Source: Patescibacteria group bacterium (GTDB lineage Bacteria; Patescibacteriota; WWE3; UBA101185; UBA10185). Taken from it: a DNA stretch of 64,000 bases. The translations under genes and the position numbers were made by a program. The stretch lies in contig JBMORU010000001.1 in NCBI GenBank assembly GCA_049322215.1, forward strand, positions 772,023 through 836,022, given 5' to 3'. This document shows, piece by piece, positions 1,160 to 35,395 of the stretch. Within the stretch, counting starts at the first letter, position 1; the number at the start of each line of letters is the position of its first letter. Below the pieces are notes generated by a model. The model saw nothing but the letters and a program-made list of their open reading frames with translations, was not told the DNA's origin and ran no database searches.

Positions 1160-1241
1160 GCAAAAAAAGAAATGAGGTTTTTACTTTTAATAAAAGCCTC
1201 ATTTCTCCTTAATTCCAAAGTATAGTAGTATTCTTGTTGTT

Positions 1242-3242
1242 ATGAACTTCAAACGCTTTATTCCGTTGATTGCCTTGTTTGTTTTAGTTGGTGCTTATAT
1301 TGTTTTCAACTTACCTGCAAGTAATCAATCAACACTTAAAAAAATTACAAATAAAAGTACAAATTCTCCTGTGGTTTTAGTGGGTGAAAGTTGGAGTATT
1401 GGCGAAATCAAGTCTGATTATGAGGTAAGTAGTGAACTGTTACCTTTTAGGTCAAGTGCATGGTGGAAGCACCCTGAAATAAACAATTGTAATACTTATG
1501 TTTATCCCTACCCTTATGTTTTAGAATTAAATAGCAATAAAATAGGTGTTGGTATTTTATCACCATTACCATCAAAAGATTTTGTTGTTGGAAAAAAGGC
1601 AGGATTAATAAACTTTACTTTTAATGGTGAATTCACTAAGTGTGGTGTGACAAGTGCGCAACAATTAAGTGCTGACTTCAATTTAAAAAATGACAGCACC
1701 ACTGTAAATATTTTTGCAGCTAAGGGGTTAGGATATATTTATTTTGATACAAATGCTACAACATTATCACTTGAAGCCGCTGAAATTTCTAAATTAGAAA
1801 ATTTTGACAATAGAGTAATTGCCACTACTAACGAAACTACATTTGGTATAGAGTTTAATTCTTCAGTTAATATTGAAGATAAAAATAAAATTACTTCTAC
1901 TAATAGCGATTCCCTAAAATTTTCAGTATTTTTAATGCCAAATGGTTATACAAATGACCTGTTTGCAAATGTTCCGCAAAATAAAGTTGATTTCATAAGC
2001 ACATTCTCACAATCGGAGGACTCATATATGCAGGAATTCAAATTGAGCGAAGCAGTGCCCGTATATTTAATGCCTCATCACTACATCAATAAAGAAAACC
2101 CAAGCGAAGTTTTTGTTTCAACACTTAGAGGAAACATGCGACTTGAAGTTACCGATTTTTTCACAGCAGAAATTCCAAACTATTTGCAACAAGTTCCTAA
2201 ACAAATAAAACTTACAGAACAACAAAAACAAACTTTAGCTACACAGTTAAGAAAAGATATAGGAACCTTTGAAGACTTAAAAAATGCAGATGGAATTTAC
2301 TGGAAAGGTAAAACTTTAGCAAAGTATGTGAATTTACTATACGTGGCAAATTTGGTAGAAGATAAGACTAGCTATGACTTAATTTTTAATGAAATATCTA
2401 CAGAGTTAGACGATTGGTTTTTATTGAGCTCTTTAAGTGATAAAAAATACTTTTCATACGATAACAATTTGGGTGGTTTAGTAAGCAGTTCTGAAGAGTT
2501 TGGTCATCAAGAATACAATGATCATCATTTTCATTATGGATATTGGGTGTACACAATGGGAATGCTTGCCGAGTTAGAACCAAACTATGCGAAAAAATAT
2601 TCTACATTAGTTGATTATTTAATTAGAGATGTTGCAAGCAATGATATGTACGACCCTAGTTTTCCTTATTTAAGACACTTTGATTTATATGAAGGTCATA
2701 GTTATGCCTCTGGTTTAGTATATTTTGCAGATGGAAATAATCAGGAATCCACATCAGAAGCAGTAAACTTTTGGTATGGAGCACACAAATGGTACAACGC
2801 AATGCAAATGGCAGATAAAGCGGATTGGTATTCTGTTGCCTATAATTTAGAGGCCTTTACTTCTAATGTTTATTATCACAATACCTATAATTTGAGCGAT
2901 GTTTTTCCGCCAGAGTACAAACACGAATTAGCCTCTATAGTTTGGGAAGGAAAATATGACTTTGCAACTTGGTTTAGTGCTGATCCAAATGCAATTCATG
3001 GTATTCAAATACTTCCTGTTACATTTGGTTCATACTATTTAAACAACTCTGAGTATGCTAAGCGTAAAATAACTAGTTTAAACAATGAAGCCTTAGAAAA
3101 GTCTTGGGGTGATATAAATTTAGGTTATGAAATAATTAATGGTTTGGCAAAAGAGCAAGATATAGAAAATGTTGTCATTACAGATTCAGGTATTACAAAA
3201 ACATGGCTTTATATGTTACTATACGCAAAGGATATAGGTTAA
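1242..3242 (+). CDS. secreted or membrane-anchored glycoside hydrolase, GH81-like (endo-beta-1,3-glucanase family)
   Basis: N-terminal TM/signal anchor; motifs YNDHHFHYGYW and NNQESTSEAVNFWYG resemble the conserved GH81 catalytic-region motifs (established family knowledge; no search run). Confidence 0.55.
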   Translation: MNFKRFIPLIALFVLVGAYIVFNLPASNQSTLKKITNKSTNSPVVLVGESWSIGEIKSDYEVSSELLPFRSSAWWKHPEINNCNTYVYPYPYVLELNSNKIGVGILSPLPSKDFVVGKKAGLINFTFNGEFTKCGVTSAQQLSADFNLKNDSTTVNIFAAKGLGYIYFDTNATTLSLEAAEISKLENFDNRVIATTNETTFGIEFNSSVNIEDKNKITSTNSDSLKFSVFLMPNGYTNDLFANVPQNKVDFISTFSQSEDSYMQEFKLSEAVPVYLMPHHYINKENPSEVFVSTLRGNMRLEVTDFFTAEIPNYLQQVPKQIKLTEQQKQTLATQLRKDIGTFEDLKNADGIYWKGKTLAKYVNLLYVANLVEDKTSYDLIFNEISTELDDWFLLSSLSDKKYFSYDNNLGGLVSSSEEFGHQEYNDHHFHYGYWVYTMGMLAELEPNYAKKYSTLVDYLIRDVASNDMYDPSFPYLRHFDLYEGHSYASGLVYFADGNNQESTSEAVNFWYGAHKWYNAMQMADKADWYSVAYNLEAFTSNVYYHNTYNLSDVFPPEYKHELASIVWEGKYDFATWFSADPNAIHGIQILPVTFGSYYLNNSEYAKRKITSLNNEALEKSWGDINLGYEIINGLAKEQDIENVVITDSGITKTWLYMLLYAKDIG

Positions 3243-3289
3243 TTTAATAATTATCTCTAAATTACTCCTATTAATTATAATAGGATTTT

Positions 3290-4816
3290 TTGCGCATGAA
3301 GACTATAAACAAGCTTAATCAAAAGAAGGTGATATCTCCGGCTATTACAACAATAGTCGCACTTTCAATTTTTTCAGGACTTTACTACTTAATATTCCTT
3401 TTTAATTCAGACAATATTAGCGACTTTTTATTTTATTCAGTTGCAGTAATTGTTGAACTTTACGTTATTGTTACAGCAATTTTCACTTGGTGGACAATAA
3501 TCTTTCATGATAAAGGTGTAGAAATTGTAAAAGAATTTAAATCCAGTGGTAAGCCTTTTCAAGGGAATGTGGCAGTAATACTTGCTGTTTATACAGAACC
3601 ATTAAGAATTGTTGAAGAAACACTTAATGCATGTAAAAACTTAACTGTTCCACACACTTTGTACGTTGGCGATGATAGTGGTCGTTATGAAGTAAAAGCT
3701 TTAGCTGAAAAATACGGAGCTATTTACATTTCAAGAGAAAAAAACACATATAATAAGTCAGGTAATATAAACAATGTTTTATCTCAGGTTAAAGAAGATT
3801 TTGTGGTTACATTTGATATAGACCATAAACCTTTACCACAATTTTTAGAAAAAACACTTCCATATTTTAATGATGCTGAGGTTGCCTTTGTGCAAACTCC
3901 GCAATATTACACAAATACAAGTTCTACTATAGCTAAAGGAGCCTCTGGTGCGCAAAACATTTTTTACGAATTAATTATGCCAGGCAAAAACGCATTTAAT
4001 TCTGCAATTTGTGTTGGTACAAATGTTATTTACAGAAAAAAAGCACTAGATGAGGTTTTAAATGGAGGCATATATTTATTAGACCACTCAGAAGATATTT
4101 ACACAGGCTTAACGTTGCATGCCGCAGGCTGGAAATCTGCTTATGTACCCGAAGTATTGGCTGAAGGTTTAGCTCCAACCGAAATAGATTCTTATTTTAG
4201 ACAGCAGTTACGTTGGGCAAGAGGCGGTTTTAGTATTTTATTTAATTTCAATAAACTGTTTAGTAAAAAACTAACTATTGAACAAAAAGCTCAGTACGTT
4301 TTTTCTACGCTACATTATTTTAGTGGTTTTGCCATTTTGTTTTATTTACTAATGCCTATAGTTTATTTATTAACTGGAATAAAACCTTTTGCAGTTGCTG
4401 ATTCCACTACATGGATACTACATTTTATGCCGTTTTTCTTATCAAAATTTTTACTAATTTTGTACTTAATGGAACACTTTGATCCTGCACTTTTGTCTAC
4501 TTCTTTGGGTTTGTTTCCTGTGTACATAAAGGCGTTTTTTATAGAACTATTAGGAAAAAAAGACTACAGCTGGGAAGTAACCAATAGCGAAGAGCTAAGT
4601 AATAACGAAAAACGCTCTGTATATGATTATTTAGTTTCACACGTATTTATAATTTTGTTGTCTCTTGTGGCAATATTTACCGGCTTAATAACTCTTCAGG
4701 ATAAAGTAACTGCATTTATGTTTTCATTTTGGGCAGGAGTAAATGTAATTTTACTTATTCACTTTATTTATGCAGCTTTAGAAAAAAAGACCGAGGTAAA
4801 AATATATGACTTTTAA
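3290..4816 (+). CDS. processive family-2 glycosyltransferase, cellulose/curdlan-synthase-like (BcsA/CrdS-type catalytic subunit, no PilZ domain)
   Basis: N-terminal TMs, DDSG and FDIDH (D,D / DxD), VQTPQYY, CVGTNVIYRKKAL, QQLRWARG (QxxRW) motifs, C-terminal TM cluster. Confidence 0.8.
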   Translation: MRMKTINKLNQKKVISPAITTIVALSIFSGLYYLIFLFNSDNISDFLFYSVAVIVELYVIVTAIFTWWTIIFHDKGVEIVKEFKSSGKPFQGNVAVILAVYTEPLRIVEETLNACKNLTVPHTLYVGDDSGRYEVKALAEKYGAIYISREKNTYNKSGNINNVLSQVKEDFVVTFDIDHKPLPQFLEKTLPYFNDAEVAFVQTPQYYTNTSSTIAKGASGAQNIFYELIMPGKNAFNSAICVGTNVIYRKKALDEVLNGGIYLLDHSEDIYTGLTLHAAGWKSAYVPEVLAEGLAPTEIDSYFRQQLRWARGGFSILFNFNKLFSKKLTIEQKAQYVFSTLHYFSGFAILFYLLMPIVYLLTGIKPFAVADSTTWILHFMPFFLSKFLLILYLMEHFDPALLSTSLGLFPVYIKAFFIELLGKKDYSWEVTNSEELSNNEKRSVYDYLVSHVFIILLSLVAIFTGLITLQDKVTAFMFSFWAGVNVILLIHFIYAALEKKTEVKIYDF

Positions 4817-5585
4817 AAACATAAAAATTTTATTTAAATATTTGTTTATATTTGTTGTTGTTATTAGTATTGGGTATTTCAGGCTATCTAAGGCAAACAC
4901 CGCTCGCAATGATTATTATCAAATAGAAGGTCATTTAGAATATGATGAAGTGCTAATTGGTACTTATGTATCGGGAACTGTTAAAGAGGTTTTGGTTGAT
5001 AAAGGTGATTATATAGAAAAAGGAGATTTATTAATGAAACTTGAGAATGATGTTTTGGTAGAAAAAGTTTCTGGTATGGATCCTTCTAGTCCTTATTTTA
5101 ACGAGCCTGAGTTTAGAGAGCTATACAAAAAAATTCAGTATTTAGACGTTTACGCACCTCAGAGTGGTTATATTATTGAATTAAATTACGAGAAAAACTC
5201 TTTTGTACGAGAAAATGAAATTTTAGCTATATTAGCCCCTCAAGATTCGTTTAAGTATGCTGGAAAAATTGATTATGGAACAAAGTATGGTTCTGGGGTT
5301 GAGCTGCGAGATGCTATAGTTAAAGGTACGCCTGTTCAAATTAAATTTGAGGGTTCTACCGATAAAGTTAGTTCAAAAGTTGTAGATGTAACCCCTGTTA
5401 CAGATGATTTGGGCACAAATTTGGGTGCTGATTTAATACTTTTAGAACAAAGTACTAATGGAACTCTAATTTTAGGTAAAAAGTTTGATATTTTGATAGC
5501 TAAGAAAAACCCTACACAAAAACTAACTGATGCCGCAAAAGAATTTTTTGAGCCAGCATACGTAAGCGGATATGTTAAAAATTAA
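4806..5585 (+). CDS. HlyD-like membrane-fusion/periplasmic adaptor protein (single N-terminal TM, biotin-lipoyl-like hairpin)
   Basis: overlaps upstream GT2 stop by 11 nt; N-terminal TM; LIGTYVSGTVKEVLVDKGDYIEKGDLLMKL resembles the MFP lipoyl-like motif. Confidence 0.5.
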   Translation: MTFKNIKILFKYLFIFVVVISIGYFRLSKANTARNDYYQIEGHLEYDEVLIGTYVSGTVKEVLVDKGDYIEKGDLLMKLENDVLVEKVSGMDPSSPYFNEPEFRELYKKIQYLDVYAPQSGYIIELNYEKNSFVRENEILAILAPQDSFKYAGKIDYGTKYGSGVELRDAIVKGTPVQIKFEGSTDKVSSKVVDVTPVTDDLGTNLGADLILLEQSTNGTLILGKKFDILIAKKNPTQKLTDAAKEFFEPAYVSGYVKN

Positions 5586-7584
5586 ACAACTAATTGCAGA
5601 CATTTTATTTTTACTTTTAATAAGCTCATTTATTGTGAGTGTGTTTTCATTTACTTGGGAAGGTAAATACATAAATACAGGTTATAACGATTGGATTAAT
5701 ATGGCCTATCGAATCTCTTTAGTAAGAGAGTTTGGTTTAACTCATTGGACTCACTTAAGCGGTAATGGTCACAACATTTGGCAGGCCTATCAGTTTATTC
5801 CACAAATTTTAGTAGCTGAATATTCAAAGTTTATGAGCATTTCTGTTACATCTGCTATGTTACGTGTTACATTGGTTGGTTTAATTTTTATGTATTCCAC
5901 TATGTACTTTCTTTTAAGAAAATTCAAAGTCCCCGCATTTTTGGCTTTTGTAACTACTTTCGTTGCCATTGGTGTTCCTCAAATGATGATAAGCATTTGG
6001 GACTTCAGCATTTTCATAGGCTTAGTGTTTGTTCCGTTGTTTTTATACTTAATTTTAAAAAGAGATAAAGAATTTGAAATTGACTTTGTACCTTTTGCGA
6101 TTGGCGTTTCACCCTATATTCATCCAATTTTAAGTTTTAGCACCTTAGCTATACTGGTGCTTTACAACATAATGAATAAAAGATTTAAACAGCTAGCAGC
6201 TGATATGTTTTTTATTATGTTACTGTTTGGCTTTTATATTTCAGGGGCCTTTTTTTATTCAGGTACGTTTTATTATGCAGCTTTCCTGGATAATATGTAT
6301 TTTTTACGTCAAATGACTACTTTTGCTAATTATGGTATTTCTTTATCTACCTTTGCGTTTATTGTTATTTTTTCACTATTGGCATTTTTTAATATATTTA
6401 AGCTTAAAAAATCCGGCAAAAACTTTTTAATGCTTTTTTCATTTTTTATTGTAATTTTAGTTTGGTTAACTGCTACTTATTCATATGAACTGCCGACCAT
6501 CCTCAATAGATTTCAAGTACCACGTTGGATTCCTTTTGCTGTATTGCCCTTACTTTTTGGCATAGGCCTATCTTTAAGTGAATTATCTAAATATACTAAG
6601 TCACCTCGAATGCTAAAAGTTATTGCCTTATTTGTTTTTTGCTTCTTTATTGTTGAAAATACTAGTAACAACTTTTTAACTTCAATTTCACGCTACTCTT
6701 CAATTTCTCAAAACAATTATCAAGATCCTTTAACAGTATTCGAGCAGCAAAACAACATAAAGCTTACTAACTGGGAAAGAGTTTATGCTTTGCACCCCAC
6801 AGAAGTAGCGTTTTATCATTTTAATGACGTTCGAGTAGAGGGTTCGTATTATCACTTTTTATCTAGCCCGATAACATATTTAATTGAAGAAGCTACATTA
6901 ACTCCTAATTATGATAAAGCGCTGTTACAAACGGTTTTAAATTATTATAAGAGTAGGGGAATAAACTACATTATTTTGCCTTCAAACTTATCTGTAACAA
7001 CTGGCTTAGTAAATAATATTAAAGAGTTTCCAGAAATAGAGCTGTTAGATACTGTTGAAAAAATAGATGGAACAGAGTACACAGTTTTTAAAAGTAATTG
7101 GAAATTTACTGATGCTCTTGTATACGATACTACCTATGAGTTTCCCGAATTTGACTACAGCGCATTTGAATACCCCTGGGATCGTGAGTATGTAGATTTG
7201 TACGTAAATGAGTTTGCCAATACTTTATCAAGCGGTGTCCCCTTTAAAGTAACTTATCCTAGCCAGGAGTCAATTTATATTTCGGGGATTCCACCTAAGA
7301 AAGAGGTTTTATTACTTTCTCAATATGATTTTAATTGGTCGGCTAGTGATTCTAACAGTGAAAAAGTTGAAATATTACAAACTGGACCTGGTTATATGCT
7401 TATAAGGAATGACACCAATATAAATAAAAACGTTTTACTAACGCATTTAGAACCAAAATCCGACTATTACGGGAAATTAGTAACTAAAGCAGGTTTATTA
7501 GCATGGCTTATTTCTTTTATTGTTTGGCAATGCTATTTTTATATCAAGCAAAAGAGGACTATAATTACCAATACTAATCCCTAA
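5572..7584 (+). CDS. large polytopic membrane protein with C-terminal extracytoplasmic domain, unknown function (last gene of the glucan operon)
   Basis: 14-nt overlap with upstream gene; many hydrophobic helices in the first 350 aa, hydrophilic C-terminal half, final TM. Confidence 0.45.
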   Translation: MLKIKQLIADILFLLLISSFIVSVFSFTWEGKYINTGYNDWINMAYRISLVREFGLTHWTHLSGNGHNIWQAYQFIPQILVAEYSKFMSISVTSAMLRVTLVGLIFMYSTMYFLLRKFKVPAFLAFVTTFVAIGVPQMMISIWDFSIFIGLVFVPLFLYLILKRDKEFEIDFVPFAIGVSPYIHPILSFSTLAILVLYNIMNKRFKQLAADMFFIMLLFGFYISGAFFYSGTFYYAAFLDNMYFLRQMTTFANYGISLSTFAFIVIFSLLAFFNIFKLKKSGKNFLMLFSFFIVILVWLTATYSYELPTILNRFQVPRWIPFAVLPLLFGIGLSLSELSKYTKSPRMLKVIALFVFCFFIVENTSNNFLTSISRYSSISQNNYQDPLTVFEQQNNIKLTNWERVYALHPTEVAFYHFNDVRVEGSYYHFLSSPITYLIEEATLTPNYDKALLQTVLNYYKSRGINYIILPSNLSVTTGLVNNIKEFPEIELLDTVEKIDGTEYTVFKSNWKFTDALVYDTTYEFPEFDYSAFEYPWDREYVDLYVNEFANTLSSGVPFKVTYPSQESIYISGIPPKKEVLLLSQYDFNWSASDSNSEKVEILQTGPGYMLIRNDTNINKNVLLTHLEPKSDYYGKLVTKAGLLAWLISFIVWQCYFYIKQKRTIITNTNP

Positions 7585-7599
7585 GAAAAGGAGCTAAAT

Positions 7600-7956
7600 A
7601 TGGCATTTATAACAAATTGTCCCAACGGTTTGGATACTTATGTTTATTTGTATTGTTCAGAGTGTGGTTCTTGGAATCCTGTCAAAATTGGAGGTCCTGG
7701 TAAAAAACCTGTGTCCCCCTCAATGTTACTCAACGTACTCGCATTGGTTTTTGATTGTTTGATTCCATTTTCGGTACCGTCTTTATTGGCTCAGTATCTT
7801 CAAACAAGCCCAATTAGTTGGTTTAAATGTACTTGTTGTGGGCATGAGTTTTGTTATGACTCACGTGTGTATTTAGATAACCCACTAAACTACACCATTG
7901 AAGATGCTCGAAAAGCTGGTGCCGATTGTGAACGCTCCCTTACTATGTATGCGTAA
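7600..7956 (+). CDS. small Cys-rich protein, putative zinc ribbon (CSECGSW ... CTCCGHEFC)
   Basis: RBS aaaaggagctaaatATG; two Cys clusters; hairpin terminator 7945-7990. Confidence 0.4.
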   Translation: MAFITNCPNGLDTYVYLYCSECGSWNPVKIGGPGKKPVSPSMLLNVLALVFDCLIPFSVPSLLAQYLQTSPISWFKCTCCGHEFCYDSRVYLDNPLNYTIEDARKAGADCERSLTMYA

Positions 7957-8087
7957 TGAGAAAGGTAAACTGTATTTTTCTCATTACGCTTTTTTTATCC
8001 CTTCGCATCCCAGTAACCCATAGCATTGAACAATTGATGTTTATGTAGTAAAATATCTTAACAAATCAACATAAAAAGGAGAGTCGC

Positions 8088-10961: not shown

Positions 10962-12143
10962 TTACTCGTATCTTAATGCTTCAATTGGATTTTTTTTGCT
11001 TGCTTTAATTGCAGGGTATGTTCCAAAAATTATTCCTACAAATACTGCAAACCCAAAAGCTACAAACACTGCAGATAAAGGTAATGCTGTTTCTACGAAT
11101 TGTTTAGCTGCTACAGAAAGTAGATAGCCAAGTATTAACCCAACAATCCCTCCAACAGAACTTAGCAAAATAGATTCAATTAAAAATTGTACTGCAACAT
11201 CATTATTAGTAGCTCCGAGAGCTTTTCGTAAACCTATTTCTCTTGTACGCTCTGTAACAGAAACCAACATAATATTCATAATTCCTATTCCTCCTACTAA
11301 AAGTGAAATTCCGGCAATTGCACCTAAACCTATGGTCAATATTTGCAATATATTTTGTATTGAACCAAGAATTTCTTCTTGTGAAATTACAGTGAAGTCG
11401 TCGTCATCCAGATCACGCAATAAGGCTAACTCAATTTCTCTTTTTGCAATATTAACTTGTTCATTGCTAATCACTTTTGTTCCAATGTTACTAAAATTGT
11501 CTATTTCTAGCGTTTCCATTATAGATGTGTAAGGCGTCATAACAACGTCATCAAAGTCCATTCCCTTTTCTTTAAAAGTACCTATTACTTCATAGCTTTC
11601 TGTTCCTATTTCAATGGTTTCACCAATTGGATTTTTTGAGCCAAAAAGCTCTTGTTTAGCAGTATTACCCAAAATTGCCACTTTTTCTTTTCCGCTAATG
11701 TCGGCTTTAGTAAACTTTCTACCGGTATTTAACTCGAAATTGAACACATTCAAAGCTTGTTCGTTCCCCCCGTTTATAGTTGCATTGTAACTATTTGTTT
11801 TGAATATCACTTTTTGTCCCACTCTAATTTGAGGAGTAATTCCTGCCAAGTGTTGTGCTCCATGAGTTTCTATTAATTCTATGTGTTTTTCTCCCAGTTT
11901 ATTTTTGGTTAAATATTTTGCAGGGTCGTCTCCTAAATCTACCTGACCGGGAGAAACCATTAATAAATTCGACCCTAATGCGTTAAATCGATCAGTTATG
12001 TAATTTTGCATTCCCTGTCCAATTGACACCAAAGAAACAACCGAAAAGACACCAATGATAACTCCCAATGTAGTCAAAAAAGAGCGTACTTTATTTGCAC
12101 GTAGGGCAACTGTTGCAGTTTTGAATGTTTCTTCATATTTCAC
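10962..12143 (-). CDS. ABC transporter permease, MacB/FtsX family (orphan copy, no adjacent ATPase)
   Basis: N-terminal TM, large periplasmic domain, C-terminal 3-TM FtsX region; about 50 percent identical by eye to 36074-37255, including the shared KK(N/D)PIEALRYE C-terminus. Confidence 0.75.
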   Translation of the reverse strand: MKYEETFKTATVALRANKVRSFLTTLGVIIGVFSVVSLVSIGQGMQNYITDRFNALGSNLLMVSPGQVDLGDDPAKYLTKNKLGEKHIELIETHGAQHLAGITPQIRVGQKVIFKTNSYNATINGGNEQALNVFNFELNTGRKFTKADISGKEKVAILGNTAKQELFGSKNPIGETIEIGTESYEVIGTFKEKGMDFDDVVMTPYTSIMETLEIDNFSNIGTKVISNEQVNIAKREIELALLRDLDDDDFTVISQEEILGSIQNILQILTIGLGAIAGISLLVGGIGIMNIMLVSVTERTREIGLRKALGATNNDVAVQFLIESILLSSVGGIVGLILGYLLSVAAKQFVETALPLSAVFVAFGFAVFVGIIFGTYPAIKASKKNPIEALRYE

Positions 12144-13499: not shown

Positions 13500-14417
13500 A
13501 TGAAAAAACATAGACCTGTAACTAAAGCCGTAATTGCTGCCGCTGGGTATGGTACCCGATTTTTACCTGCAACTAAAAATCAGCCAAAAGAAATGCTTCC
13601 AATTATAGATAAGCCTATAATTCATTACGTGGTAGAGGAAGCCGTTAAATCTGGTATTACAGATATAATATTAGTTTCACGAGCAGGGCAACATGTTATG
13701 GAAGATTATTTTGATAATCATTTAGAACTAGAGCACGCGTTAAGAGAAGCTGGAAAAACTGACCGCTTAAAAATGGTGCAAGAAATACCCCAAATGGCAA
13801 ACTTTGTGTACGTAAGGCAAAAGGGAAATTTACCTTATGGAAATGCCTCACCTTTAATAGCTGCAAAAAAATTAATAGATGATGATGAGGCTTTTGTATA
13901 TATGTTTGCAGACGATATAACCTTAGGTAATCCCCCAATAACAAGGCAGTTAATTGAAGTTTACAACGAGTATCATCCTTCGGCTGTTTTGGCCACCCAA
14001 GAAGTTCCATGGAATCAAGTTTACCGCTATGCTACTTTAGAATTTAAAAAAGACGCTAGTTATGCTTATGCTATGGCCAAGGGCTACGAAAAATTAAATG
14101 AAGCTGAAGCCCCTTCAAATATGATTCAGGTGGGACGTTTTGTGTTTACTCACGATGTAATTAAAGCCGTAGAAACATGTCCTACAGGAAAAGACGGTGA
14201 ATTATGGATGATAGACGTTTTAAATCAAGTTGCACATGAGGGTAAAAAGGTATATGCAGCACCATACGATGGAGAGTGGTTAACTACAGGAGATCCCTTA
14301 AACTTTATGAAAGCTATGTTTCGTGTTTCTATGGAAAGAGAAGATTTAAGAGATGACATACTAGACTACTTAAAACGTGAAATTTTGTCTTATTCTGAGT
14401 ACTACAACTCAAACTAG
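13500..14417 (+). CDS. galU: UTP--glucose-1-phosphate uridylyltransferase-like sugar nucleotidyltransferase
   Basis: KAVIAAAGYGTRFLPATKNQPKEMLPIIDKP N-terminal nucleotidyltransferase motif typical of UGPase. Confidence 0.7.
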   Translation: MKKHRPVTKAVIAAAGYGTRFLPATKNQPKEMLPIIDKPIIHYVVEEAVKSGITDIILVSRAGQHVMEDYFDNHLELEHALREAGKTDRLKMVQEIPQMANFVYVRQKGNLPYGNASPLIAAKKLIDDDEAFVYMFADDITLGNPPITRQLIEVYNEYHPSAVLATQEVPWNQVYRYATLEFKKDASYAYAMAKGYEKLNEAEAPSNMIQVGRFVFTHDVIKAVETCPTGKDGELWMIDVLNQVAHEGKKVYAAPYDGEWLTTGDPLNFMKAMFRVSMEREDLRDDILDYLKREILSYSEYYNSN

Positions 14418-14446: not shown

Positions 14447-15121
14447 ATGCAAAAGCTTACAAGTTTAAAAAAGCTTGGAGTATCAGCTAACTCTAAAATA
14501 TTATTAGTATTTCCTCATCCTGACGATGAGGCAGTATTTACCGGGGGTTTAATACAATTTAGTTTAAAAGCCCGTGCTGATCTTAAATTGATAGTGCTAA
14601 CAAAGGGTGAATCAAGCACCCTAAGACATGGTTTAAAAGAAACCCAAGATCTTGCTATTGAGCGTGAAAAAGAATTAAAAAAAGCATGTACTTTGTTAGG
14701 ACTAAAAAATTGTACACAATGTTCTTATGCTGATGGCTCTTTAGGCAGCACACAGCATGAGGTTACCGAATTTTTGTATGAGCAAATAAAGAGTTATAAT
14801 CCTGATTTTGTAGTTACATACGAACCTCAAGGGGTATATGGGCACGTAGACCATGTTCTTACATCAAAAATCATAACTAGTTTAAAACATGAGCTAAATT
14901 TTAAAATACTTTATGCCACAATTCATTTGGACTCTGAAGTTACTAAAGAAGTTTTTCCGTTAGAACCTAATATTATGTTGGAATTATCATCCTTGGATTT
15001 GGTAAAAAAACTTTTTGCTGTTTTATCGCATAAAAGCCAGTTTAGAGTTCACAAGCTTGATTCCTGGAAATGGATTAAACTCGCTATTTCAAAAAAAGAA
15101 TACTTTCACTTAATGTATTAG
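14447..15121 (+). CDS. PIG-L/LmbE family N-acetylglucosaminyl deacetylase
   Basis: ILLVFPHPDDEAVFTGG signature and HxDH (GHVDHV) motif. Confidence 0.7.
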   Translation: MQKLTSLKKLGVSANSKILLVFPHPDDEAVFTGGLIQFSLKARADLKLIVLTKGESSTLRHGLKETQDLAIEREKELKKACTLLGLKNCTQCSYADGSLGSTQHEVTEFLYEQIKSYNPDFVVTYEPQGVYGHVDHVLTSKIITSLKHELNFKILYATIHLDSEVTKEVFPLEPNIMLELSSLDLVKKLFAVLSHKSQFRVHKLDSWKWIKLAISKKEYFHLMY

Positions 15122-19204: not shown

Positions 19205-19945
19205 TTAAGTAACTTCCAGTATTTTTTTTATTCTCTCCAACCTTTCAGAGGTACCAACATCTTCCCAAAGGGTGTTTTGAGGATAAATAAAGGCTTTTAC
19301 ATCTTCTTTATTTGTTAAAAGAGTAGTATATAAATCATCATCCCCAAAAAGTCCCCAAAATACATTTTCTGGAATTAACTTTAAATGTGCTTTGTTTATT
19401 ATATGTTGAGACGCAAACACAAGTTTTGTTTTGGTATTTCCGTACTTGTTTCGGGCGGCTTCTGTAATATTGAAGTTATCATCTATACCTATGCTCTTTG
19501 CATAGGCGTCTTCGTTTTTATTAACTAATGCTAGCGTAGCTACTTGGGTGCCGTTTTTATGAAAATTAAGTAGTTTACTAAAATCTAAATTGGTTACTAT
19601 ATCAGCGTTGCAAACTAAAATGTCTTCGTTTTCATGTATAAAGTTTTCAGTTTTTTTTAAATCGCCTCCTGTTCCTAAAAGGTTATTTTCGGGTAGTTCT
19701 ATAAATTTTACTTTTAAGTGTTTGTAGTTATTTTTATATCTATCATAAAATTTTTCTGGGAAGTATCTTACTGTAATGATAACGTCACTTATTTTAGTGA
19801 GCGATATTCTATCAAGCGTGTATTCAATTAAAGGTTTCCCATTAACTTCTACAAGAGGTTTTGGAAGAGAATATGTAAGAGGACGTAGTCTAGTACCCAA
19901 GCCGCTCGCTAAAATTACTGCTGTTTTTACGTGTTTTTTTATCAT
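19205..19945 (-). CDS. sugar-phosphate nucleotidyltransferase (NDP-sugar pyrophosphorylase)
   Basis: AVILASGLGTRLRPLTYSLPKPLVEVNGKPLIEY; ORF track starts 19981, the internal Met (MIKKH) is more likely. Confidence 0.65.
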   Translation of the reverse strand: MIKKHVKTAVILASGLGTRLRPLTYSLPKPLVEVNGKPLIEYTLDRISLTKISDVIITVRYFPEKFYDRYKNNYKHLKVKFIELPENNLLGTGGDLKKTENFIHENEDILVCNADIVTNLDFSKLLNFHKNGTQVATLALVNKNEDAYAKSIGIDDNFNITEAARNKYGNTKTKLVFASQHIINKAHLKLIPENVFWGLFGDDDLYTTLLTNKEDVKAFIYPQNTLWEDVGTSERLERIKKILEVT

Positions 19946-20066
19946 AGTGCTGTTATAACGAAATTTTACTATATTAATCACTCCTTGACTTATTTATATA
20001 AATATTTTATAAACTTAAGTTATAGTTTGTATACTATAAGTTTCTGCCCAATCTAAAGGAAAAATA

Positions 20067-22478
20067 ATGTCAACAACCAACCGAATTACTACTTTTATTG
20101 TATTTTTTATAAGTCTTTTTTTAGCATCCTCACAAATAAACACTTTAAATGCACAAACAACCTTAAAAATAAATGCTTATAAAGTAGTTTGTGATAGTGA
20201 AAGTGCTTTGCCAAACTGGGGAGATGGTGGAAAACCATCTGTAATTAATGAAACTACAGCTAAAGACTTTATAAACACCCATGAAAATTGCTATTTTGTT
20301 GAGAATTGGGCATTTCAATGGGGTTTTCACGATAAAGATCAAGGAATAACTCAAGGAGTAGACAAGTTAGTTGGTACTCACTTGGGTACAGCAAGCGGTA
20401 CTCCCTCAGTTTGTGACTACAACTGTGGCGTTAACACTAATAGTGGTAATGCATTTAATGAATGGAAACTTTTTGATACTACAACTGGCCCTTTAGGAAC
20501 ACCTGCAACAGTTGAAATAACTAATTTAGAGAATTCTCCTGGTATTTGGGTTAGAGAGGTATTAACGGCAGATTACATTCCTTATACATACCCAAATCAA
20601 GGAAGCACAGAAAATGATGTTACTGCCGAGTTATATTGTCACCAAGACATAGCTAACTTTGATAATTACGATTTAGTAAGTCCTATTTTCCTAGGTTCTA
20701 CATATAACTGTATTGCCTTTAATGTAATAAATGAACAACCTGTAGATTTGTGTCTAAATATTGAGGGTGTGCAAGAAGAAATACCTGAGAGTTTTTATTT
20801 TGACTCTGAGGTCGAAGCTTGTTTGCCTATTGAAGACGAAAAAGAAGAAGCTGTTTTAACAATATCAAAAGTCAATAATGCCAGTGAAAATAACAAAGAA
20901 ACGGGTGATAACGTAACTTATACAATAATTGTTTCTCTAAACGAAGATTCCCAGGAAGTAAAAAATGTAGAAGTAATTGACTTGCCACCTGAGGGTTTCT
21001 CATATGTTTTAGGGTCTTGGACATCCTCATCAGATGTAAGAGGTGACTTAAAAGACGAAGGCATTACAACTGAGCCTACTTATTCTTCTCCTGGTGTGTG
21101 GCAATTAGGCACTATGACTCCAGGTGAAACAGTTACTTTAACTTATGTAGCTAATATTTCAAGTTCTATAGATCCTGGGCTTTACAAAGATGCCGCATGG
21201 TCAAAAGGTATTGTAGGGTTAAATAATGTGTTTGCAAATGCAGACTCTGGGATTTTTGTAGGTACAACGGTAAACGTAGTAAAACCAGTATCTTATTCTG
21301 AAAACGTTGAAGTAGAAAAAGAAGTAAAAGAAGTTGTAGAAGAAGTTTTAGGTGCCTCTTCTCAACGCCTGTTACCTGCAACTGGTGCTAACACAATTTG
21401 GTTAGCCTCTGCAATTTTAGTGTTTGTATTTGGAGTTATCATGATTGGTTATTCTTTAGTTTTAAAAAGTAAAAAACTTAGAGCTTACTTAAGACTGTTT
21501 TCAGTTTTAATTGTTGCTGGATTAATATTTGTTAGTGGTTTTAGTTCAAATGTTTATGCAGCAGAATTGATTGTACGAATAGAAGAACCGAAGTCACCAA
21601 CAAATGATTCTACATTTGATATTAACTTTGTTGCGCTAGATATTAACAATAGACCAGTAACAATTAAATGCTATGGTAGAAATGTTTCTAATTCATTTGT
21701 GCAGCTAGGTTCTGATCAAAACCTTCAAGCAGGCGGAGATTCAGGAAACTGTAGTGTTGGAAACGACTTAATTACGAGAACAGGAGACTACGAATTTTAC
21801 GTTAAAGCTTTTGCCGAAAGTGACGAGGTTTCCTCCTCTATAGTTAAAGTAGTTTATGACGATACCCGCCCTGGGCAACCAAGAAGCTTTTCTAAATCTA
21901 AATTAGACTCTTGTAAGTACGAAATATCTTTTAAAACAGCAAAAGACGGTGGTGATACAACTAGAGTTGAAGTGTATCGTTCTTCTGAAAAGGACTTTGA
22001 CGCAGATTCAGAATCTTCAATAAAAAATATCGATATTGGTTCTGATAAAAAGGTAAAACTTGAAGTTGAACGCCCTGAATGTGGTAAAAAGTATTATTTC
22101 GCTGTTAGGGCATTTGATGCTGCAGGAAACGTGTCTAAGGTATTAGTAGAAACTGTTGAAGAAACAGAGACCACCATAGTAACTATTGAATCAAGTGTTA
22201 ATGCAGGACAGGGTCCAATTCCAGTTTCCGGTGATGTTGGTTTTGTACTATCTTCTTCAACTGGAAGCACTAACAATGGCTTAGAACTTGAAAATGGTGA
22301 TTTGTTAGGAGATAGCGTAGAGTCTACAGAAGCAGTAAGCGACATAGTAACTAACATACCTACTAACCCTGACTCAGACAGCGATGATACAACAAATAGA
22401 TTATTGTTTTGGGTACTAGTTATACTTGTGGCATTAGGAGTACTGTATGATATATACAGGAAAGTGGCTAAAAAGTAA
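20067..22478 (+). CDS. large surface protein with signal peptide and an internal LPATG sorting signal (LPATG 21372-21386 + TM + KSKK) followed in-frame by a second signal-peptide-like segment, an Ig/FN3-like domain and a C-terminal TM anchor
   Basis: N-terminal signal peptide; LPATGAN + hydrophobic stretch + basic tail = classic sortase sorting signal but at aa about 436 of 803; then FSVLIVAGLIFVSGFSSNVYA|AE and final LLFWVLVILVALGVLY TM. Confidence 0.6.
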   Translation: MSTTNRITTFIVFFISLFLASSQINTLNAQTTLKINAYKVVCDSESALPNWGDGGKPSVINETTAKDFINTHENCYFVENWAFQWGFHDKDQGITQGVDKLVGTHLGTASGTPSVCDYNCGVNTNSGNAFNEWKLFDTTTGPLGTPATVEITNLENSPGIWVREVLTADYIPYTYPNQGSTENDVTAELYCHQDIANFDNYDLVSPIFLGSTYNCIAFNVINEQPVDLCLNIEGVQEEIPESFYFDSEVEACLPIEDEKEEAVLTISKVNNASENNKETGDNVTYTIIVSLNEDSQEVKNVEVIDLPPEGFSYVLGSWTSSSDVRGDLKDEGITTEPTYSSPGVWQLGTMTPGETVTLTYVANISSSIDPGLYKDAAWSKGIVGLNNVFANADSGIFVGTTVNVVKPVSYSENVEVEKEVKEVVEEVLGASSQRLLPATGANTIWLASAILVFVFGVIMIGYSLVLKSKKLRAYLRLFSVLIVAGLIFVSGFSSNVYAAELIVRIEEPKSPTNDSTFDINFVALDINNRPVTIKCYGRNVSNSFVQLGSDQNLQAGGDSGNCSVGNDLITRTGDYEFYVKAFAESDEVSSSIVKVVYDDTRPGQPRSFSKSKLDSCKYEISFKTAKDGGDTTRVEVYRSSEKDFDADSESSIKNIDIGSDKKVKLEVERPECGKKYYFAVRAFDAAGNVSKVLVETVEETETTIVTIESSVNAGQGPIPVSGDVGFVLSSSTGSTNNGLELENGDLLGDSVESTEAVSDIVTNIPTNPDSDSDDTTNRLLFWVLVILVALGVLYDIYRKVAKK

Positions 22479-23112
22479 GATTACCCGCTTATCGAAGTCT
22501 GATCTAGCTTTGTTATTTGGTTTAATACTAGTGGGCGTATCTATAGCTTGTATCTTTGTAGTTTTTTATCCAGTATTAAAAGAAGAGTTTAGATATAACT
22601 TTGAAAAACGATACGTAGACCCCAAAGTTTTACTTACTAACCCCAGCATAAAAGTTCCAGGATATATTGTACCTGTTGACACATCGTTTAGCGTTGTTAT
22701 TCCTAAAATTGGAGCTAATTCAAAAGTTGTGGCAAATGTGGATCCCTACAATTCTAATGAATATCAGGTTCAGCTAACAAAAGGGGTAGCACATGCTTTA
22801 GGTACAAGTTTTCCCGGAATGCCCGGGAACACCTTTTTGTTTGCACACTCATCAGGAAATATTTTTGAAGCAAATAAATACAATTCTATCTTTTATCTTT
22901 TAAATAAGTTGGAATACGGCGATGAAATTTTTGTAGCTTATTTTGGGGAGTTATATACATATAAAGTACATACAATTAAAGTTGTTGAAGCAGCAGATGT
23001 AGAATACCTTAAAGATGAAAACTCTGATAAATCAATGCTAACGCTAATGACCTGTTGGCCAGCAGGTACAACATTAAAAAGGTTAATTGTTCAGGCAGAC
23101 GTTATAAATTAA
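22447..23112 (+). CDS. sortase (transpeptidase)
   Basis: N-terminal TM, LFAHSSG (catalytic His), TLMTCWP (TLxTC catalytic Cys), KRLIV (Arg); overlaps the LPXTG gene 3' end. Confidence 0.7.
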   Translation: MIYTGKWLKSKITRLSKSDLALLFGLILVGVSIACIFVVFYPVLKEEFRYNFEKRYVDPKVLLTNPSIKVPGYIVPVDTSFSVVIPKIGANSKVVANVDPYNSNEYQVQLTKGVAHALGTSFPGMPGNTFLFAHSSGNIFEANKYNSIFYLLNKLEYGDEIFVAYFGELYTYKVHTIKVVEAADVEYLKDENSDKSMLTLMTCWPAGTTLKRLIVQADVIN

Positions 23113-24602
23113 AGATATTCTGCTTGGTAAACGTGTACCCATAAGTATTTAGAAAACTGCTTTTTCTCAAGTTTTGTGAAGTGATTATCAAAATAGTTTC
23201 TCACTAATGCTGCATTTTCTAAATCTTCCGAAATTAAAAGGTACATTTTTTGATGTCCTTGTCTCAAAAATTCTGTATCTTTTTCAATAGTTTCTGCAGT
23301 TGCTGCTGGTATACCAGATTTTCTTCTATCCCAAAAAGGAATAGTTACCATACGCGCTTTTGAAGAGTAATAATACTGAACAGGATATATGTTGTAAGGT
23401 GGACTTAACAGTACTAAATCTCTAGGAGATGCGTTTTCATTTATATATTGAGTAGCAGCTCTATAATCTTCTACCTTAGGGTTATAACTGCTGGTTCTTT
23501 GGTTGTGGAGGGATATTAACATTAGCCCAAACAATAACACTAAAACACCATACTTCAATTTCCCTCTTATTTCATCGATATACCAGGCAATTAAAATGAA
23601 ATATAACGGTGTAGCAGATACCAAGTATCTTGTTAAATATACAGGCTTAGCTAAAACACTTACACCAAAGGTTAAAACTACAGGTAGTACAGTACCTAGT
23701 AAAAGAAAATATATCCAATAAGTAAAGGGGTCCTGTCTTTTGGTTAAAAATATAAAACCAAGTAGTATTATTAGTGGCCATAAACCAATAATAAATGCGG
23801 CATATTCTTCGGGTTGATACCCAAAAGTGAATTCGAAGAAGCTTAAAAACATATTAAAGCTATTTGGGGTGGTTAACGATGGTGCATATGTTCCGGCATT
23901 TGTAGCAGTGGCAAGCATACGTAGCCATGGAATAAAAGCTAAAATCAACGCTAGTGCAGAAATAACAAGTCCCCATAATATATAAATCTTCTTTGTTTCC
24001 TTGTTAATTTGTGTTTTCCATGCAGCTATAAAGAAAATTACTTGAACAAGTAAGACTAAACCAAAATAGTAATGGGTATAAATACCAAGAATGTTAAATA
24101 AAATATAACCTAAGTAATAACCAGGTTTGTGTGTTTTTATGATTTTTACAAAAAAGTAGTATGACATTATTGAGGCAAAGGTAAGTAGGGTATACATTCT
24201 AATTTCTCTGCTATACCAAACCCAAAAAGGGGATACTGCAGCTATTGTTGTAGCTATTAATGCTCGTTCTTTATCTAATACTTCTTTTGCAAGCAAGTAT
24301 ATTGCGGGTAAGCATAGTAGCCCAGGTATTAAGGCTAATGTTCTTACTGCGGTTTCAGAAGTACCAAATGTTTCCATCCAATAGTGTAGTAAGGTGTTAT
24401 GTAAGGGCAAGTGCACATTTTTAGCCATGTAAAAACGTATGTATTCAATAGTATGTGACGCTTGCCATACACTTTGAGCTTCGTCTAAACGTAATCCGCT
24501 ATAACCCAGCTTCCAAATGCGTAATAAAGATCCTATTAGAATAACTGTCACTAATAGTATTTGGTGAGCATATTTTTTATGTAATATACCTTGTTTATTC
24601 AA
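23109..24602 (-). CDS. GT-C fold glycosyltransferase, family 39/ArnT-PMT-like (polytopic membrane)
   Basis: LLRIWKLGYSGLRLDEAQSVW N-terminal loop motif typical of PMT_2/ArnT; about 11 TM. Confidence 0.6.
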   Translation of the reverse strand: MNKQGILHKKYAHQILLVTVILIGSLLRIWKLGYSGLRLDEAQSVWQASHTIEYIRFYMAKNVHLPLHNTLLHYWMETFGTSETAVRTLALIPGLLCLPAIYLLAKEVLDKERALIATTIAAVSPFWVWYSREIRMYTLLTFASIMSYYFFVKIIKTHKPGYYLGYILFNILGIYTHYYFGLVLLVQVIFFIAAWKTQINKETKKIYILWGLVISALALILAFIPWLRMLATATNAGTYAPSLTTPNSFNMFLSFFEFTFGYQPEEYAAFIIGLWPLIILLGFIFLTKRQDPFTYWIYFLLLGTVLPVVLTFGVSVLAKPVYLTRYLVSATPLYFILIAWYIDEIRGKLKYGVLVLLFGLMLISLHNQRTSSYNPKVEDYRAATQYINENASPRDLVLLSPPYNIYPVQYYYSSKARMVTIPFWDRRKSGIPAATAETIEKDTEFLRQGHQKMYLLISEDLENAALVRNYFDNHFTKLEKKQFSKYLWVHVYQAEYL

Positions 24603-34345: not shown

Positions 34346-35395
34346 ATGCGCAAAAGAAAAAAACTAATTATAATTATAATAATTATTGTTCTCGGGGTTG
34401 GTGGGTTTTTTTATTCAAAAAGAAATTCCGGGAATGCCGTAAATGTACGTGAAGCTGAGGTTTATACCGATGAAGTAACAAAAACAGTATCTGCTAGTGG
34501 TGTTATTAAATCAATTAATCAGGCTAATTTGGCTACTATAACTCCAGGAACGTTAGAAAAATTAAATGTAAAAGAAACGGAAGAGGTAAAAAAAGGTCAA
34601 ATTTTAGGAAATGTCTCTAATTACGATTTGTATAAAGGGTCGGAAGCAAAAAAGCAGGCTCGAGATATTGCATTAATTGATAGAGATTTGTATGTAGAAA
34701 ACTACAGCACAAATTTAAGTGCTATTGGCGGTGAAGATGAGTATAACATTGGGTTGCGACGCCATAACGAGCTTGTTGCACAGGCAGAAGATGCTTACCA
34801 AGCATCTTTAGGTTCGTTGACTGATTCGTACTTAATTGCGCCTTTTGATGGAACTGTAGTAGACGTTTTAATTGATCAAGGCGAACTTGTAACAGCAGGC
34901 GCAAGTGTTTTAACTGTAGCTGATTTAAACCAAATAGTTTTTGAGGCTTCAATAGACCAAGAAGACTTTGGCTTAGTTAAACTAAATCAGGAAGTAGAAG
35001 TTCAACTTGATTCTTTCTCTAACAAAACTTTTACTGGAACTGTTTACAAGCTGCCTTTAGTTGTAGATTCTGCATCTAATGAGCTTACTGTTTTAATAAA
35101 AATCAACGATGTCTCAGATAACCCCGTTTTAATTGGCATGGAAGGCGATGCAGATATAGTTATAGAAAAAAACACCGTTGGTGGAACTGCACTTACTTTT
35201 GATGCAGTATTTGGTGAAGATAGCACACACTACGTATGGTTAAACGAAGAAGGAAAACTTGTGAAACAACCCGTAGAAATTGGACTAGAAGGTGATTTAT
35301 ATACAATTATTTTATCAGATATTGATTTTGATAAGGTTGTAGTTCCATTAGATGATGAATTTGAAGAGGGTGCTTCGGTTAAGTTAGAGGAGTAA
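34346..35395 (+). CDS. efflux/ABC periplasmic adaptor (MacA/HlyD family)
   Basis: N-terminal TM, lipoyl-hairpin motifs, first gene of the MFP-ATPase-permease operon. Confidence 0.6.
   Translation: MRKRKKLIIIIIIIVLGVGGFFYSKRNSGNAVNVREAEVYTDEVTKTVSASGVIKSINQANLATITPGTLEKLNVKETEEVKKGQILGNVSNYDLYKGSEAKKQARDIALIDRDLYVENYSTNLSAIGGEDEYNIGLRRHNELVAQAEDAYQASLGSLTDSYLIAPFDGTVVDVLIDQGELVTAGASVLTVADLNQIVFEASIDQEDFGLVKLNQEVEVQLDSFSNKTFTGTVYKLPLVVDSASNELTVLIKINDVSDNPVLIGMEGDADIVIEKNTVGGTALTFDAVFGEDSTHYVWLNEEGKLVKQPVEIGLEGDLYTIILSDIDFDKVVVPLDDEFEEGASVKLEE

Follow-up and report, generated by a model that had tools for sequence, protein, structure and literature searches.

The stretch analysed here, a window of 64,000 nucleotides from a Patescibacteria genome, carries a four-gene cassette at positions 1242 to 7584. 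The cassette combines a membrane-embedded glycosyltransferase of family 2 (GT2) with a glycoside hydrolase of family 81 (GH81), a short HlyD-type adaptor of the membrane fusion protein (MFP) class and a large polytopic membrane protein. With moderate confidence, we read it as a synthase-exporter of a beta-1,3-containing glucan, in which the GH81 would have a BcsZ-like role. The core of the cassette is also widely distributed among related uncultured bacteria and actinomycetes. The four genes are:

1242..3242, plus strand: GH81 endo-beta-1,3-glucanase-like protein, 666 residues (PF17652, E=2.1e-60; GH81 matches in the PDB)
3296..4816, plus strand: processive membrane-embedded GT2, the putative synthase, 506 residues (Pfam GT2 families, Cellulose_synt, BcsA structures, motifs, tree)
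4806..5585, plus strand: short HlyD/MFP-type adaptor, 259 residues (HlyD_3, Biotin_lipoyl_2)
5572..7584, plus strand: polytopic membrane protein with predicted GT-C fold, 670 residues, of a small unannotated family (AlphaFold2 model, Foldseek)

An earlier reading, made from the sequence only, had described four overlapping co-directional genes. All four are indeed on the plus strand at the positions given above, but overlaps are found at two junctions only, of 11 nucleotides between the GT2 and adaptor genes and of 14 nucleotides between the adaptor gene and that of the 670-residue protein. The gap of about 50 nucleotides between the GH81 and GT2 genes contains a weak hairpin and a U-run. In the NCBI annotation, the GT2 begins with the ATG at 3296, and an alternative TTG at 3290 would give a protein of 508 residues.

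Components and conservation of the cassette

The hydrolase had been assigned to GH81 from two motifs, and the profile search agrees. The match to Glyco_hydro81C (PF17652) reaches 205 bits, against a cut-off of 25.6, and covers positions 2-347 of the 349 in the profile. The best solved relative is 6FOP from C. thermocellum (4e-51), with BH0236 of B. halodurans (3e-35) and 4K35 of R. miehei (5e-24) further down. At its N-terminus the protein has a membrane anchor or signal segment (residues 6-24), and a C-terminal (alpha/alpha)6 catalytic domain occupies 324-655. Both motifs are present, NDHHFHYGY at residue 426 and QESTSEAVN at 501, and so are the catalytic residues, namely D427 in the former and the E502/E506 pair in GNNQESTSE (E-x-x-x-E). 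E502 aligns with the Glu that was mutated to Gln in the ligand complexes of BhGH81. Furthermore, the motif GNNQE-S-x-S-E is retained in 44 of the 44 full-length cassette GH81s. The cassette enzyme probably cuts beta-1,3-glucan. Because an N-terminal hydrophobic segment is found in most cassette GH81s (37 of 44) and in nearly every adaptor (59 of 60), both proteins are predicted to be extracytoplasmic.

The GT2 scores above the Pfam cut-offs for Glyco_tranf_2_3, Glyco_trans_2_3 and Cellulose_synt. Its topology shows two N-terminal and about 5-6 C-terminal transmembrane (TM) helices, and the protein ends about 15 residues past the last predicted TM. The motifs DDS, DID, SED and QQLRW align with those of BcsA and BgsA, and residues 131-500 align with the BcsA structures 4HG6 and 5EJ1 (about 2e-44). 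A Pfam scan returned no PilZ match and no other C-terminal regulatory domain. These results are in agreement with the processive GT2 of the sequence-only reading, with its D,D,D,QxxRW motifs and no PilZ domain. The protein also groups with the processive synthases of BcsA/BgsA type and not with Dpm1-like, non-processive transferases.

The equivalog tests for cellulose synthase fail. The match to NCBIfam CelA (TIGR03030) has an E-value of 3.8e-64 but only 216.9 bits against a cut-off of 699.1, and NF008558 gives 165.7 bits against 992. No curdlan-specific model was among the NCBIfam matches of the GT2. The gating loop reads SWEVTNS and not the canonical FxVTxK. All GH81- or GH16-linked GT2s share a signature made of FCVGTN, SEDIWT, QQxRW and W-x-[VA]-T without the Lys. 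As for a BcsB partner, Pfam and NCBIfam scans gave no BcsB-family match among the other genes of the unit.

A neighbour-joining tree of the GT2s (491 columns, 200 bootstraps) was built with BcsA and BgsA as its only references. The GH81/GH16-linked GT2s form three subclades, those of the window type (100% support), of other Patescibacteria (88%) and of high-GC loci (94%). All three fall outside the proteobacterial clade of BcsA and BgsA, which has 97% support, and the window GT2 is about 25% identical to BgsA, in a different clade. By its sequence, the GT2 is a processive synthase of the BcsA superfamily, in a clade distinct from both BcsA and BgsA.

The adaptor was expected to be HlyD-like with a single TM, and this is what we found. 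It combines one N-terminal TM (residues 6-24) with a lipoyl-like and a beta-barrel domain, and both HlyD_3 (29.3 bits, cut-off 22.2) and Biotin_lipoyl_2 (32.9 bits, cut-off 29.8) are above threshold. In a profile alignment of the hidden Markov model (HMM) of the cassette-adaptor family, the two lipoyl halves are contiguous, with only about 20-30 residues between them. The insert at this place is about 170 residues long in BgsB and about 70 in a MacA-like protein of the same genome (34346-35395). The contiguous halves mean that the adaptor is without the alpha-helical hairpin that docks TolC. A hairpin-less adaptor fits a single-membrane envelope, and the export route of the cassette presumably ends at the wall, unlike that of the TolC-dependent synthase-MFP systems. 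The adaptor may serve as a collar, as a conduit or as an assembly or activation factor.

In terms of the envelope, the window also encodes an 803-residue surface protein with DUF11 repeats followed by a sortase gene (20067-23112), which indicates covalent wall anchoring in the Gram-positive style. A sortase beside a DUF11 surface protein fits an envelope of Gram-positive type.

Among genomes, the locus has its nearest relatives in a Saccharibacteria metagenome-assembled genome (MAG) and in another Patescibacteria MAG. The same four genes occur in the same order in three loci from Saccharibacteria and Patescibacteria genomes (L001, L002, L004). Levybacteria-type loci start with the membrane protein, followed by GT2, adaptor and GH81, while Actinoplanes lacks the large membrane protein and has GT2, adaptor and GH81. 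A metagenome scan with an alignment of 30 clade members gave 80 loci, which were scored with HMMs made from the cassette proteins. Where at least 3.5 kb were available downstream of the GT2, the adaptor was found in 32 of 33 loci and the GH81 in 31 of 33. The gene orders, with MP for the large membrane protein, were:

GT2>MFP>GH81: 24 loci, mostly with a GC content of about 0.7
MP>GT2>MFP>GH81: 16 loci
GH81>GT2>MFP>MP: 4 loci, the window included
MP>GT2>MFP, with the GH81 on the opposite strand: 2 loci
GH81>MP>GT2>MFP: 1 locus

Since the linkage is kept through at least five gene orders across phyla, the genes are taken to form a functional unit. The synthase-adaptor-hydrolase system proposed for this DNA is thus supported by synteny. 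The remark that such a system is unusual for a small-genome bacterium did not hold, as the cassette recurs in Patescibacteria. In two loci, L008 and L056, the GH81 is replaced by a GH16 with SKN1/KRE6-like features. L056 also has a UTP-glucose-1-phosphate uridylyltransferase gene directly downstream of the GH16, and L060 has neither GH81 nor GH16. A full-text literature search returned no description of a GT2-MFP-GH81 cassette, nor of GH81 in Patescibacteria.

Finally, the 670-residue protein has no Pfam or NCBIfam match. It was first described as a large polytopic protein, and the roughly 11 TM segments agree with that, but it is not merely a large membrane protein. A TM core (1-365) is followed by an extracytoplasmic domain of about 260 residues (about 366-628) and a C-terminal TM (629-666). 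A word-indexed homologue search found one relative only, both with the single sequence and with a 7-sequence profile, while an exhaustive profile search of 1.84e9 representatives gave 113 relatives, nearly all of 650-700 residues. With an alignment of two sequences, AlphaFold2 reached a pLDDT (predicted local distance difference test) of 38. An alignment of 75 sequences was used instead, and gave a pLDDT of 94.5 and a pTM (predicted template modelling score) of 0.94. In a Foldseek search of the PDB, GT-C enzymes take all of the first ten places (AftD at 1.4e-7, STT3, AglB and AftA), with EmbA/B and Pmt4 next. This confident model predicts a GT-C glycosyltransferase fold.

Residues D40/W41, R47, W59, G66, H184/P185, Q315/R318 and W589 are conserved in at least 90% of the 70-75 family members compared. 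D40/W41 come immediately after TM1 in the first outside loop, where helix 40-54 starts. A few members weakly match YfhO or PTPS_related, and one (P0184) has an N-terminal PF00535 GT2 (1.6e-28) of Dpm1/CsbB type. Other variations at the N-terminus are response-regulator receiver domains in P0164 and P0229 and TPR repeats in P0142. P0171 (1518 residues) and P0229 (2159 residues) are giant members with weak YfhO or PTPS_related matches.

The gene of the 670-residue protein is confined to cassettes in loci with a GC content of 0.33-0.53 and is absent from those of about 0.7. Its absence from the actinomycete cassettes suggests that it is an accessory specific to the Patescibacteria-type versions. 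GT-C-type partners are also found elsewhere, as a PMT_2 protein beside a GH8-linked GT2 of the window and as a PMT_2-like domain fused to a GH5 in locus L005. This recurrence makes the pairing of a synthase with a GT-C protein look like a lineage-wide theme in Patescibacteria. A third GT-C gene (PMT/PMT_2, 533 residues) lies at 32312-33913 of the window, which brings the GT-C-fold proteins to three within 30 kb.

The polymer and the alternatives

A second cassette is present in the window at 23109-27448, on the minus strand. Its genes are overlapping and co-directional, and it has no adaptor:

26225-27448, minus strand: BcsZ-like GH8 (PF01270, 3.6e-48; NF008305, 6.7e-45)
24595-26235, minus strand: cellulose-synthase-like GT2 (CelA, 1.5e-82), with the canonical gating loop FDVTPK
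23109-24602, minus strand: PMT_2-type GT-C membrane protein

The GH8-linked GT2 scores 278 bits with CelA, against 217 bits for the GH81-linked one. It has the F-x-V-T-x-K gating loop and the FCCGT motif, as in BcsA and BgsA, and this second cassette is probably a cellulose-type system. Since the GH8 accompanies the more CelA-like GT2 in the same window, the hydrolase partner tracks the type of synthase. A similar picture is seen in L005 (Levybacteria MAG JACDET010000007.1, 1775-15530), where three synthase/hydrolase modules are adjacent. The first has a GT2 and an 861-residue protein in which a PMT_2-like membrane region at the N-terminus is joined to a GH5 domain, the second is a GT-C/GT2/adaptor/GH81 cassette, and the third has a GT2 and a GH26. 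The same layout is found in L006. The GH5, GH81 and GH26 pairs point to a modular arrangement with one hydrolase family per synthase.

From the GH81 and GH16 partners, the uridylyltransferase of L056, the tracking of synthase type by the hydrolase and the pairs of L005, we infer that the polymer is made of glucose and contains beta-1,3 linkages. The sequence-only reading had given this as a hint. With the comparison of genomes it now has strong support, through the GH16 substitution, the UDP-glucose pyrophosphorylase gene in one cassette and the separate cellulose-like synthase linked to GH8.

The product would be a beta-glucan, mainly or wholly beta-1,3 and so curdlan-like, made by a system adapted to a single-membrane envelope. 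UDP-glucose, probably supplied by a GalU-like enzyme, would be polymerised by the GT2 on the cytoplasmic face. Homology and the conserved catalytic motifs suggest that the growing chain exits through the TM channel of the GT2 itself, as in BcsA. The synthase is not expected to be gated by cyclic di-GMP (c-di-GMP), because it has no PilZ or other c-di-GMP module and its gating-loop motif differs. The adaptor, tethered by one TM and translationally coupled to the synthase, would form a collar or conduit on the outer face that guides the chain through the wall zone, by analogy with BgsB and XcsB. It would need no TolC-docking hairpin because there would be no outer membrane. Outside the cell, the membrane-anchored GH81 may trim, release or unjam the nascent beta-1,3-glucan, as BcsZ (GH8) does for cellulose. 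The conserved linkage and the intact catalytic residues point to this step.

In the Patescibacteria versions only, the GT-C protein may decorate the glucan or link it to an envelope acceptor, using a polyprenyl-phosphate sugar. The predicted fold, the conserved Asp of the first loop and the one family member fused to a Dpm1/CsbB-type GT2 suggest this. The role of the protein is the weakest part of the model. It could be branching or decoration from a polyprenyl-phosphate sugar, anchoring of the glucan, or that of a non-catalytic scaffold. Among the proposed steps, that of the GT-C protein is the least certain.

Several observations weigh against this reading. As for the GT2, the assigned function of its clade rests on sequence, from which linkage specificity cannot be read. 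The union of the three GH81/GH16-linked subclades has a bootstrap of 58% only, in a simple neighbour-joining tree, and a GH26-linked GT2 falls within the GH81-linked group, on a long branch. To our knowledge, CrdS is the only proven bacterial synthase of a linear beta-1,3-glucan, and the references of the GT2 tree are BcsA and BgsA only. In the case of the hydrolases, the specificity of GH81 for beta-1,3-glucan is a generalisation at the level of the family (CAZy), and GH16 contains beta-1,3-1,4-glucanases too, with lichenases beside laminarinases. The GT-C assignment comes from a predicted structure whose template modelling scores against GT-C enzymes in Foldseek are moderate (0.40-0.47). YfhO is weakly matched by only 2 of 70 family members (best 2.4e-7). 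Profile-profile comparison with hhalign gave no significant match of the family to the PMT_2 protein of the genome or to the PMT_2-GH5 fusion of L005. Lastly, no polyprenyl-phosphate sugar synthase of Dpm1/GtrB type was found among the window's open reading frames (ORFs) of at least 150 residues, nearly all of which were scanned.

The alternative that survives best, although we think it rather unlikely, is that the GT2 builds the glucan on a lipid or other primer and the GT-C protein ligates the chain, or sugars, to a wall polymer, a lipid or a surface protein. The product would then be a covalently anchored wall glycopolymer, remodelled by the GH81 during growth, and not a free exopolysaccharide. 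The best structural matches of the GT-C fold (AftD, STT3/AglB and AftA) use lipid-linked donors, D40 is conserved, P0184 is fused to a PF00535 GT2, and GT-C partners recur in other Patescibacteria synthase cassettes (the GH8 cassette of the window, L005). A three-component logic of GT-A enzyme, flippase and GT-C enzyme has also been described (PMC13390465). However, the actinomycete cassettes have no GT-C gene at all, so this component is an accessory. Moreover, the operon holds no flippase or polyprenyl-phosphate sugar synthase, and no acceptor can be named.

Less likely still, the product could be a heteroglycosidic beta-glucan like that of BgsA, either with mixed (1,3;1,4) linkage or of another type, in which GH81 or GH16 would attack the 1,3 linkages or the bonds adjoining them. 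BgsBA, also a GT2 and MFP pair, is the closest annotated match in the plasmid collection, and the family that replaces GH81 in L008 and L056 includes lichenases. A Gram-positive GT2 that makes mixed-linkage glucan is known as well (PMC10374906). Against this, the GT2 falls outside the supported BgsA/BcsA clade with its low identity to BgsA, it lacks BgsA's C-terminal c-di-GMP domain, and GH81 is the partner in 31 of 33 loci, the characterised GH81s acting on beta-1,3-glucans according to their PDB titles.

We regard an ordinary cellulose (beta-1,4) synthase operon, with the GH81 as a neighbour of unrelated role, as very improbable. The best named profile and structure matches of the GT2 are cellulose synthases, and the Joint Genome Institute (JGI) labels its relatives "cellulose synthase (UDP-forming)". 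Yet its CelA score is less than one third of the curated cut-off, PilZ and the canonical gating loop are missing, the GH81 linkage persists through rearrangements, and the genome has a separate, more CelA-like synthase linked to GH8/BcsZ.

Finally, we give hardly any credence to a GH81 that is an offensive or nutritional enzyme against host, prey or fungal beta-1,3-glucan, beside a GT2, adaptor and GT-C protein of unrelated envelope function. In its favour, the bacterial GH81s that have been characterised are catabolic (PDB entries), and Patescibacteria are presented in one account as episymbionts with reduced metabolism (PMC10633639). However, the known hosts of Saccharibacteria belong to the Actinobacteria, a group not known to have walls with beta-1,3-glucan, and free-living actinomycetes have the same linkage. 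Coupling to a synthase in one operon, kept across phyla, is typical of BcsZ-type partners, and the enzyme is membrane-anchored and not freely secreted.

Transcription unit and neighbouring genes

The cassette is flanked by two hairpins, and the other features considered around it are:

1168..1206: hairpin with a 16-bp stem and its U-run on the minus-strand side, -18.7 kcal/mol (from the sequence)
7600..7956, plus strand: Cys-rich ORF of 118 residues, orf118 (ORF, sequence, ribosome-binding site AAGGAG)
7951..7989, plus strand: intrinsic-terminator-like hairpin with a 17-bp stem followed by T7, -21.7 kcal/mol (terminator scan)
13500..14417, plus strand: GalU-like UTP-glucose-1-phosphate uridylyltransferase (TIGR01099 galU, 4.1e-71; Pfam NTP_transferase)
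14447-15121: PIG-L family gene
19205-19981, minus strand: nucleotidyltransferase
44945-46021: manC-like gene, 37 kb from the cassette

The transcript probably spans about 1210 to 7990, because a strong terminator (7951-7989) follows a small non-conserved ORF, and this hairpin is likely the 3' end of the unit. The hairpin at 1168-1206, which was not flagged by the terminator scan, sits between the end of the upstream gene (1159) and the GH81 start and is likely the 5' boundary. A third hairpin (UCCUAUUA...UAAUAGGA, 3266-3291, -7.4 kcal/mol) followed by U6 sits in the gap between the GH81 and GT2 genes, where it may act as a leaky terminator and so set the ratio of hydrolase to synthase expression. 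The promoter scan gave fewer matches than shuffled controls.

The product of orf118 has two Cys pairs (CSEC and CTCC) around a predicted TM helix. The ORF has a good ribosome-binding site and lies just 5' of the operon terminator, so that it is probably co-transcribed with the cassette. It has no family match and no tblastn match in any of 94 related loci. We considered it as a fifth component of the cassette and rejected it for want of a counterpart in these loci; not being conserved in related cassettes, it is probably not a functional part. A horizontal-transfer island was also rejected, since the GC content of 0.32-0.35 is the same as in the rest of the window, which is low throughout (0.32-0.40).

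Supply genes had been noted nearby, namely the galU-like, manC-like, nucleotidyltransferase and PIG-L genes. They are real, but they are not part of the unit. UDP-glucose for the cassette probably comes from the GalU-like enzyme, which scores 240 bits, below the TIGR01099 cut-off of 327, and whose gene lies at a distance of 6 kb and is not in the operon.

As for other genes, a MacAB-like set at 34346-37255 comprises a HlyD adaptor (349 residues, with a hairpin-sized insert), an ABC ATPase and a MacB/FtsX permease (393 residues). A lone MacB/FtsX permease, also of 393 residues, is encoded near the cassette (10962-12143, minus strand). A defence-type cluster at 56327-62507 contains an N6/N4 DNA methylase (622 residues), an OLD-family AAA_15/TOPRIM nuclease (533 residues) and a 913-residue ResIII helicase with a C-terminal restriction endonuclease domain. 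Two Beta-lactamase2 (class A-like) genes, at 48274-49041 and 53032-53958 (minus strand), with E-values of 2.4e-48 and 1.3e-41, are unexpected in a reduced genome.

Significance and comparison with known systems

Bacterial synthesis of linear beta-1,3-glucan is genetically understood for the proteobacterial crd system only, and the Gram-positive polymers of curdlan type, as in Cellulomonas, are without assigned machinery. Exactly two CrdS-like GT2s and two GH81s were reported in each of three Cellulomonas genomes, including the curdlan producer C. flavigena (PMC3544764). The authors considered curdlan machinery and turnover unclear, left the re-use of curdlan by C. flavigena unexplained and did not count GH81 as a curdlanase (PMC3544764). 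These sets may be GT2-GH81 cassettes of the same kind, and the cassette is a testable candidate in both actinomycetes and Patescibacteria.

More tentatively, and with more doubt than conviction, we suggest that the cassette is an unrecognised, widespread beta-1,3-glucan machinery of monoderms, the missing "Gram-positive curdlan synthase" of organisms such as Cellulomonas, with a new GT-C family that is obligatory in Patescibacteria for branching or anchoring. If so, this coupling of a synthase to a GT-C protein would be undescribed for any exopolysaccharide system, and a surface glucan could help ultrasmall episymbionts to build their envelope or to attach to hosts. The two cassettes of the window take up about 1% of the 1.1-Mb genome, so that surface glucans likely matter to the biology of these episymbionts. 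Furthermore, single-membrane bacteria are seen to have HlyD-type adaptors without a hairpin beside their putative glucan synthases, which bears on the role of adaptors in polymer export. The clade motifs (FCVGTN, SEDIWT and QQxRW, with the gating-loop Lys lost) give a starting point for the study of how GT2 synthases set linkage and regulation, and an unannotated membrane-protein family gains a predicted fold and a genomic context.

In the case of Agrobacterium crdASC, the predicted product is the same, a linear beta-1,3-glucan, and CrdS is a PilZ-less GT2 of the BcsA superfamily, as is the cassette GT2. Neither a HlyD-type adaptor nor a GH81 or GT-C protein is known from crdASC, which also differs in being proteobacterial and diderm. 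Searches of the plasmid collection returned BgsA, BcsA and HlyD-linked "cellulose synthase" genes and no recognisable crdASC. CrdS is named as a bacterial GT2 synthase in the literature (PMC10374906).

BgsBA of Sinorhizobium meliloti consists of a GT2 and a HlyD-type MFP and is dependent on TolC (PMC13438883). As in the cassette, a processive BcsA-like GT2 lies beside a HlyD-type MFP gene. BgsA depends on its MFP, and the BgsBA beta-glucan contains 1,3 linkages. However, BgsA has 664 residues with a C-terminal c-di-GMP-binding domain, which the GT2 of 506 residues lacks, and BgsB has 410 residues, carries the insert of about 170 residues and uses TolC, in contrast to the hairpin-less adaptor of 259. 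Nothing in the organism of the cassette points to an outer membrane. BgsBA also lacks genes for a hydrolase and a GT-C protein, and the two GT2s, about 25% identical, belong to different clades.

The cyanobacterial Xcs system is made of the synthase XcsA, the HlyD-like XcsB, the endoglucanase XcsC and TolC, with cellulose as product (PMC8892547). Similar genes are found on a plasmid of Sulfitobacter indolifex (L093, pDSM14862_b), as a GH8-HlyD-"cellulose synthase" cassette, and on pAt of Agrobacterium fabrum (L092), as a HlyD-"cellulose synthase" cassette. The GT2s of L092 and L093 group with BgsA rather than BcsA, so that their "cellulose synthase" annotation may be wrong. Xcs and L093 share with our cassette the three-part logic of synthase, HlyD-like adaptor and dedicated glycoside hydrolase. 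Their hydrolases, on the other hand, are of cellulase type (GH8-like) with cellulose as product, their adaptors are long and TolC-docking in a diderm envelope, and they have no GT-C partner.

The systems for three-component glycosylation (a CsbB/GtrB-type GT2, a GtrA flippase and a YfhO/GT-C protein) resemble the cassette through the GT-C fold of the 670-residue protein and, within its family, the weak YfhO/PTPS_related matches and the PF00535 fusion. They differ in that the cassette GT2 is predicted to be a processive synthase rather than one for polyprenyl-phosphate sugars, a flippase gene is missing, and the 670-residue family is outside every Pfam and NCBIfam model.

Lastly, Bcs (BcsA-BcsB-BcsZ-BcsC), the clostridial Ccs and the Streptomyces CslA-GlxA-CslZ have the same synthase fold and catalytic motifs, and a dedicated extracytoplasmic endoglucanase encoded in the operon. 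The cassette is without BcsB, PilZ and the canonical FxVTxK loop, and its hydrolase is a GH81, not a GH8, GH5 or GH6. Taken by sequence, it is not a member of Bcs, given the equivalog score, PilZ, gating loop and BcsB, nor of Bgs, given the clade and the C-terminal domain. By analogy, it is a system that would work like the synthase-dependent exporters Bcs, Xcs, Bgs and Crd.

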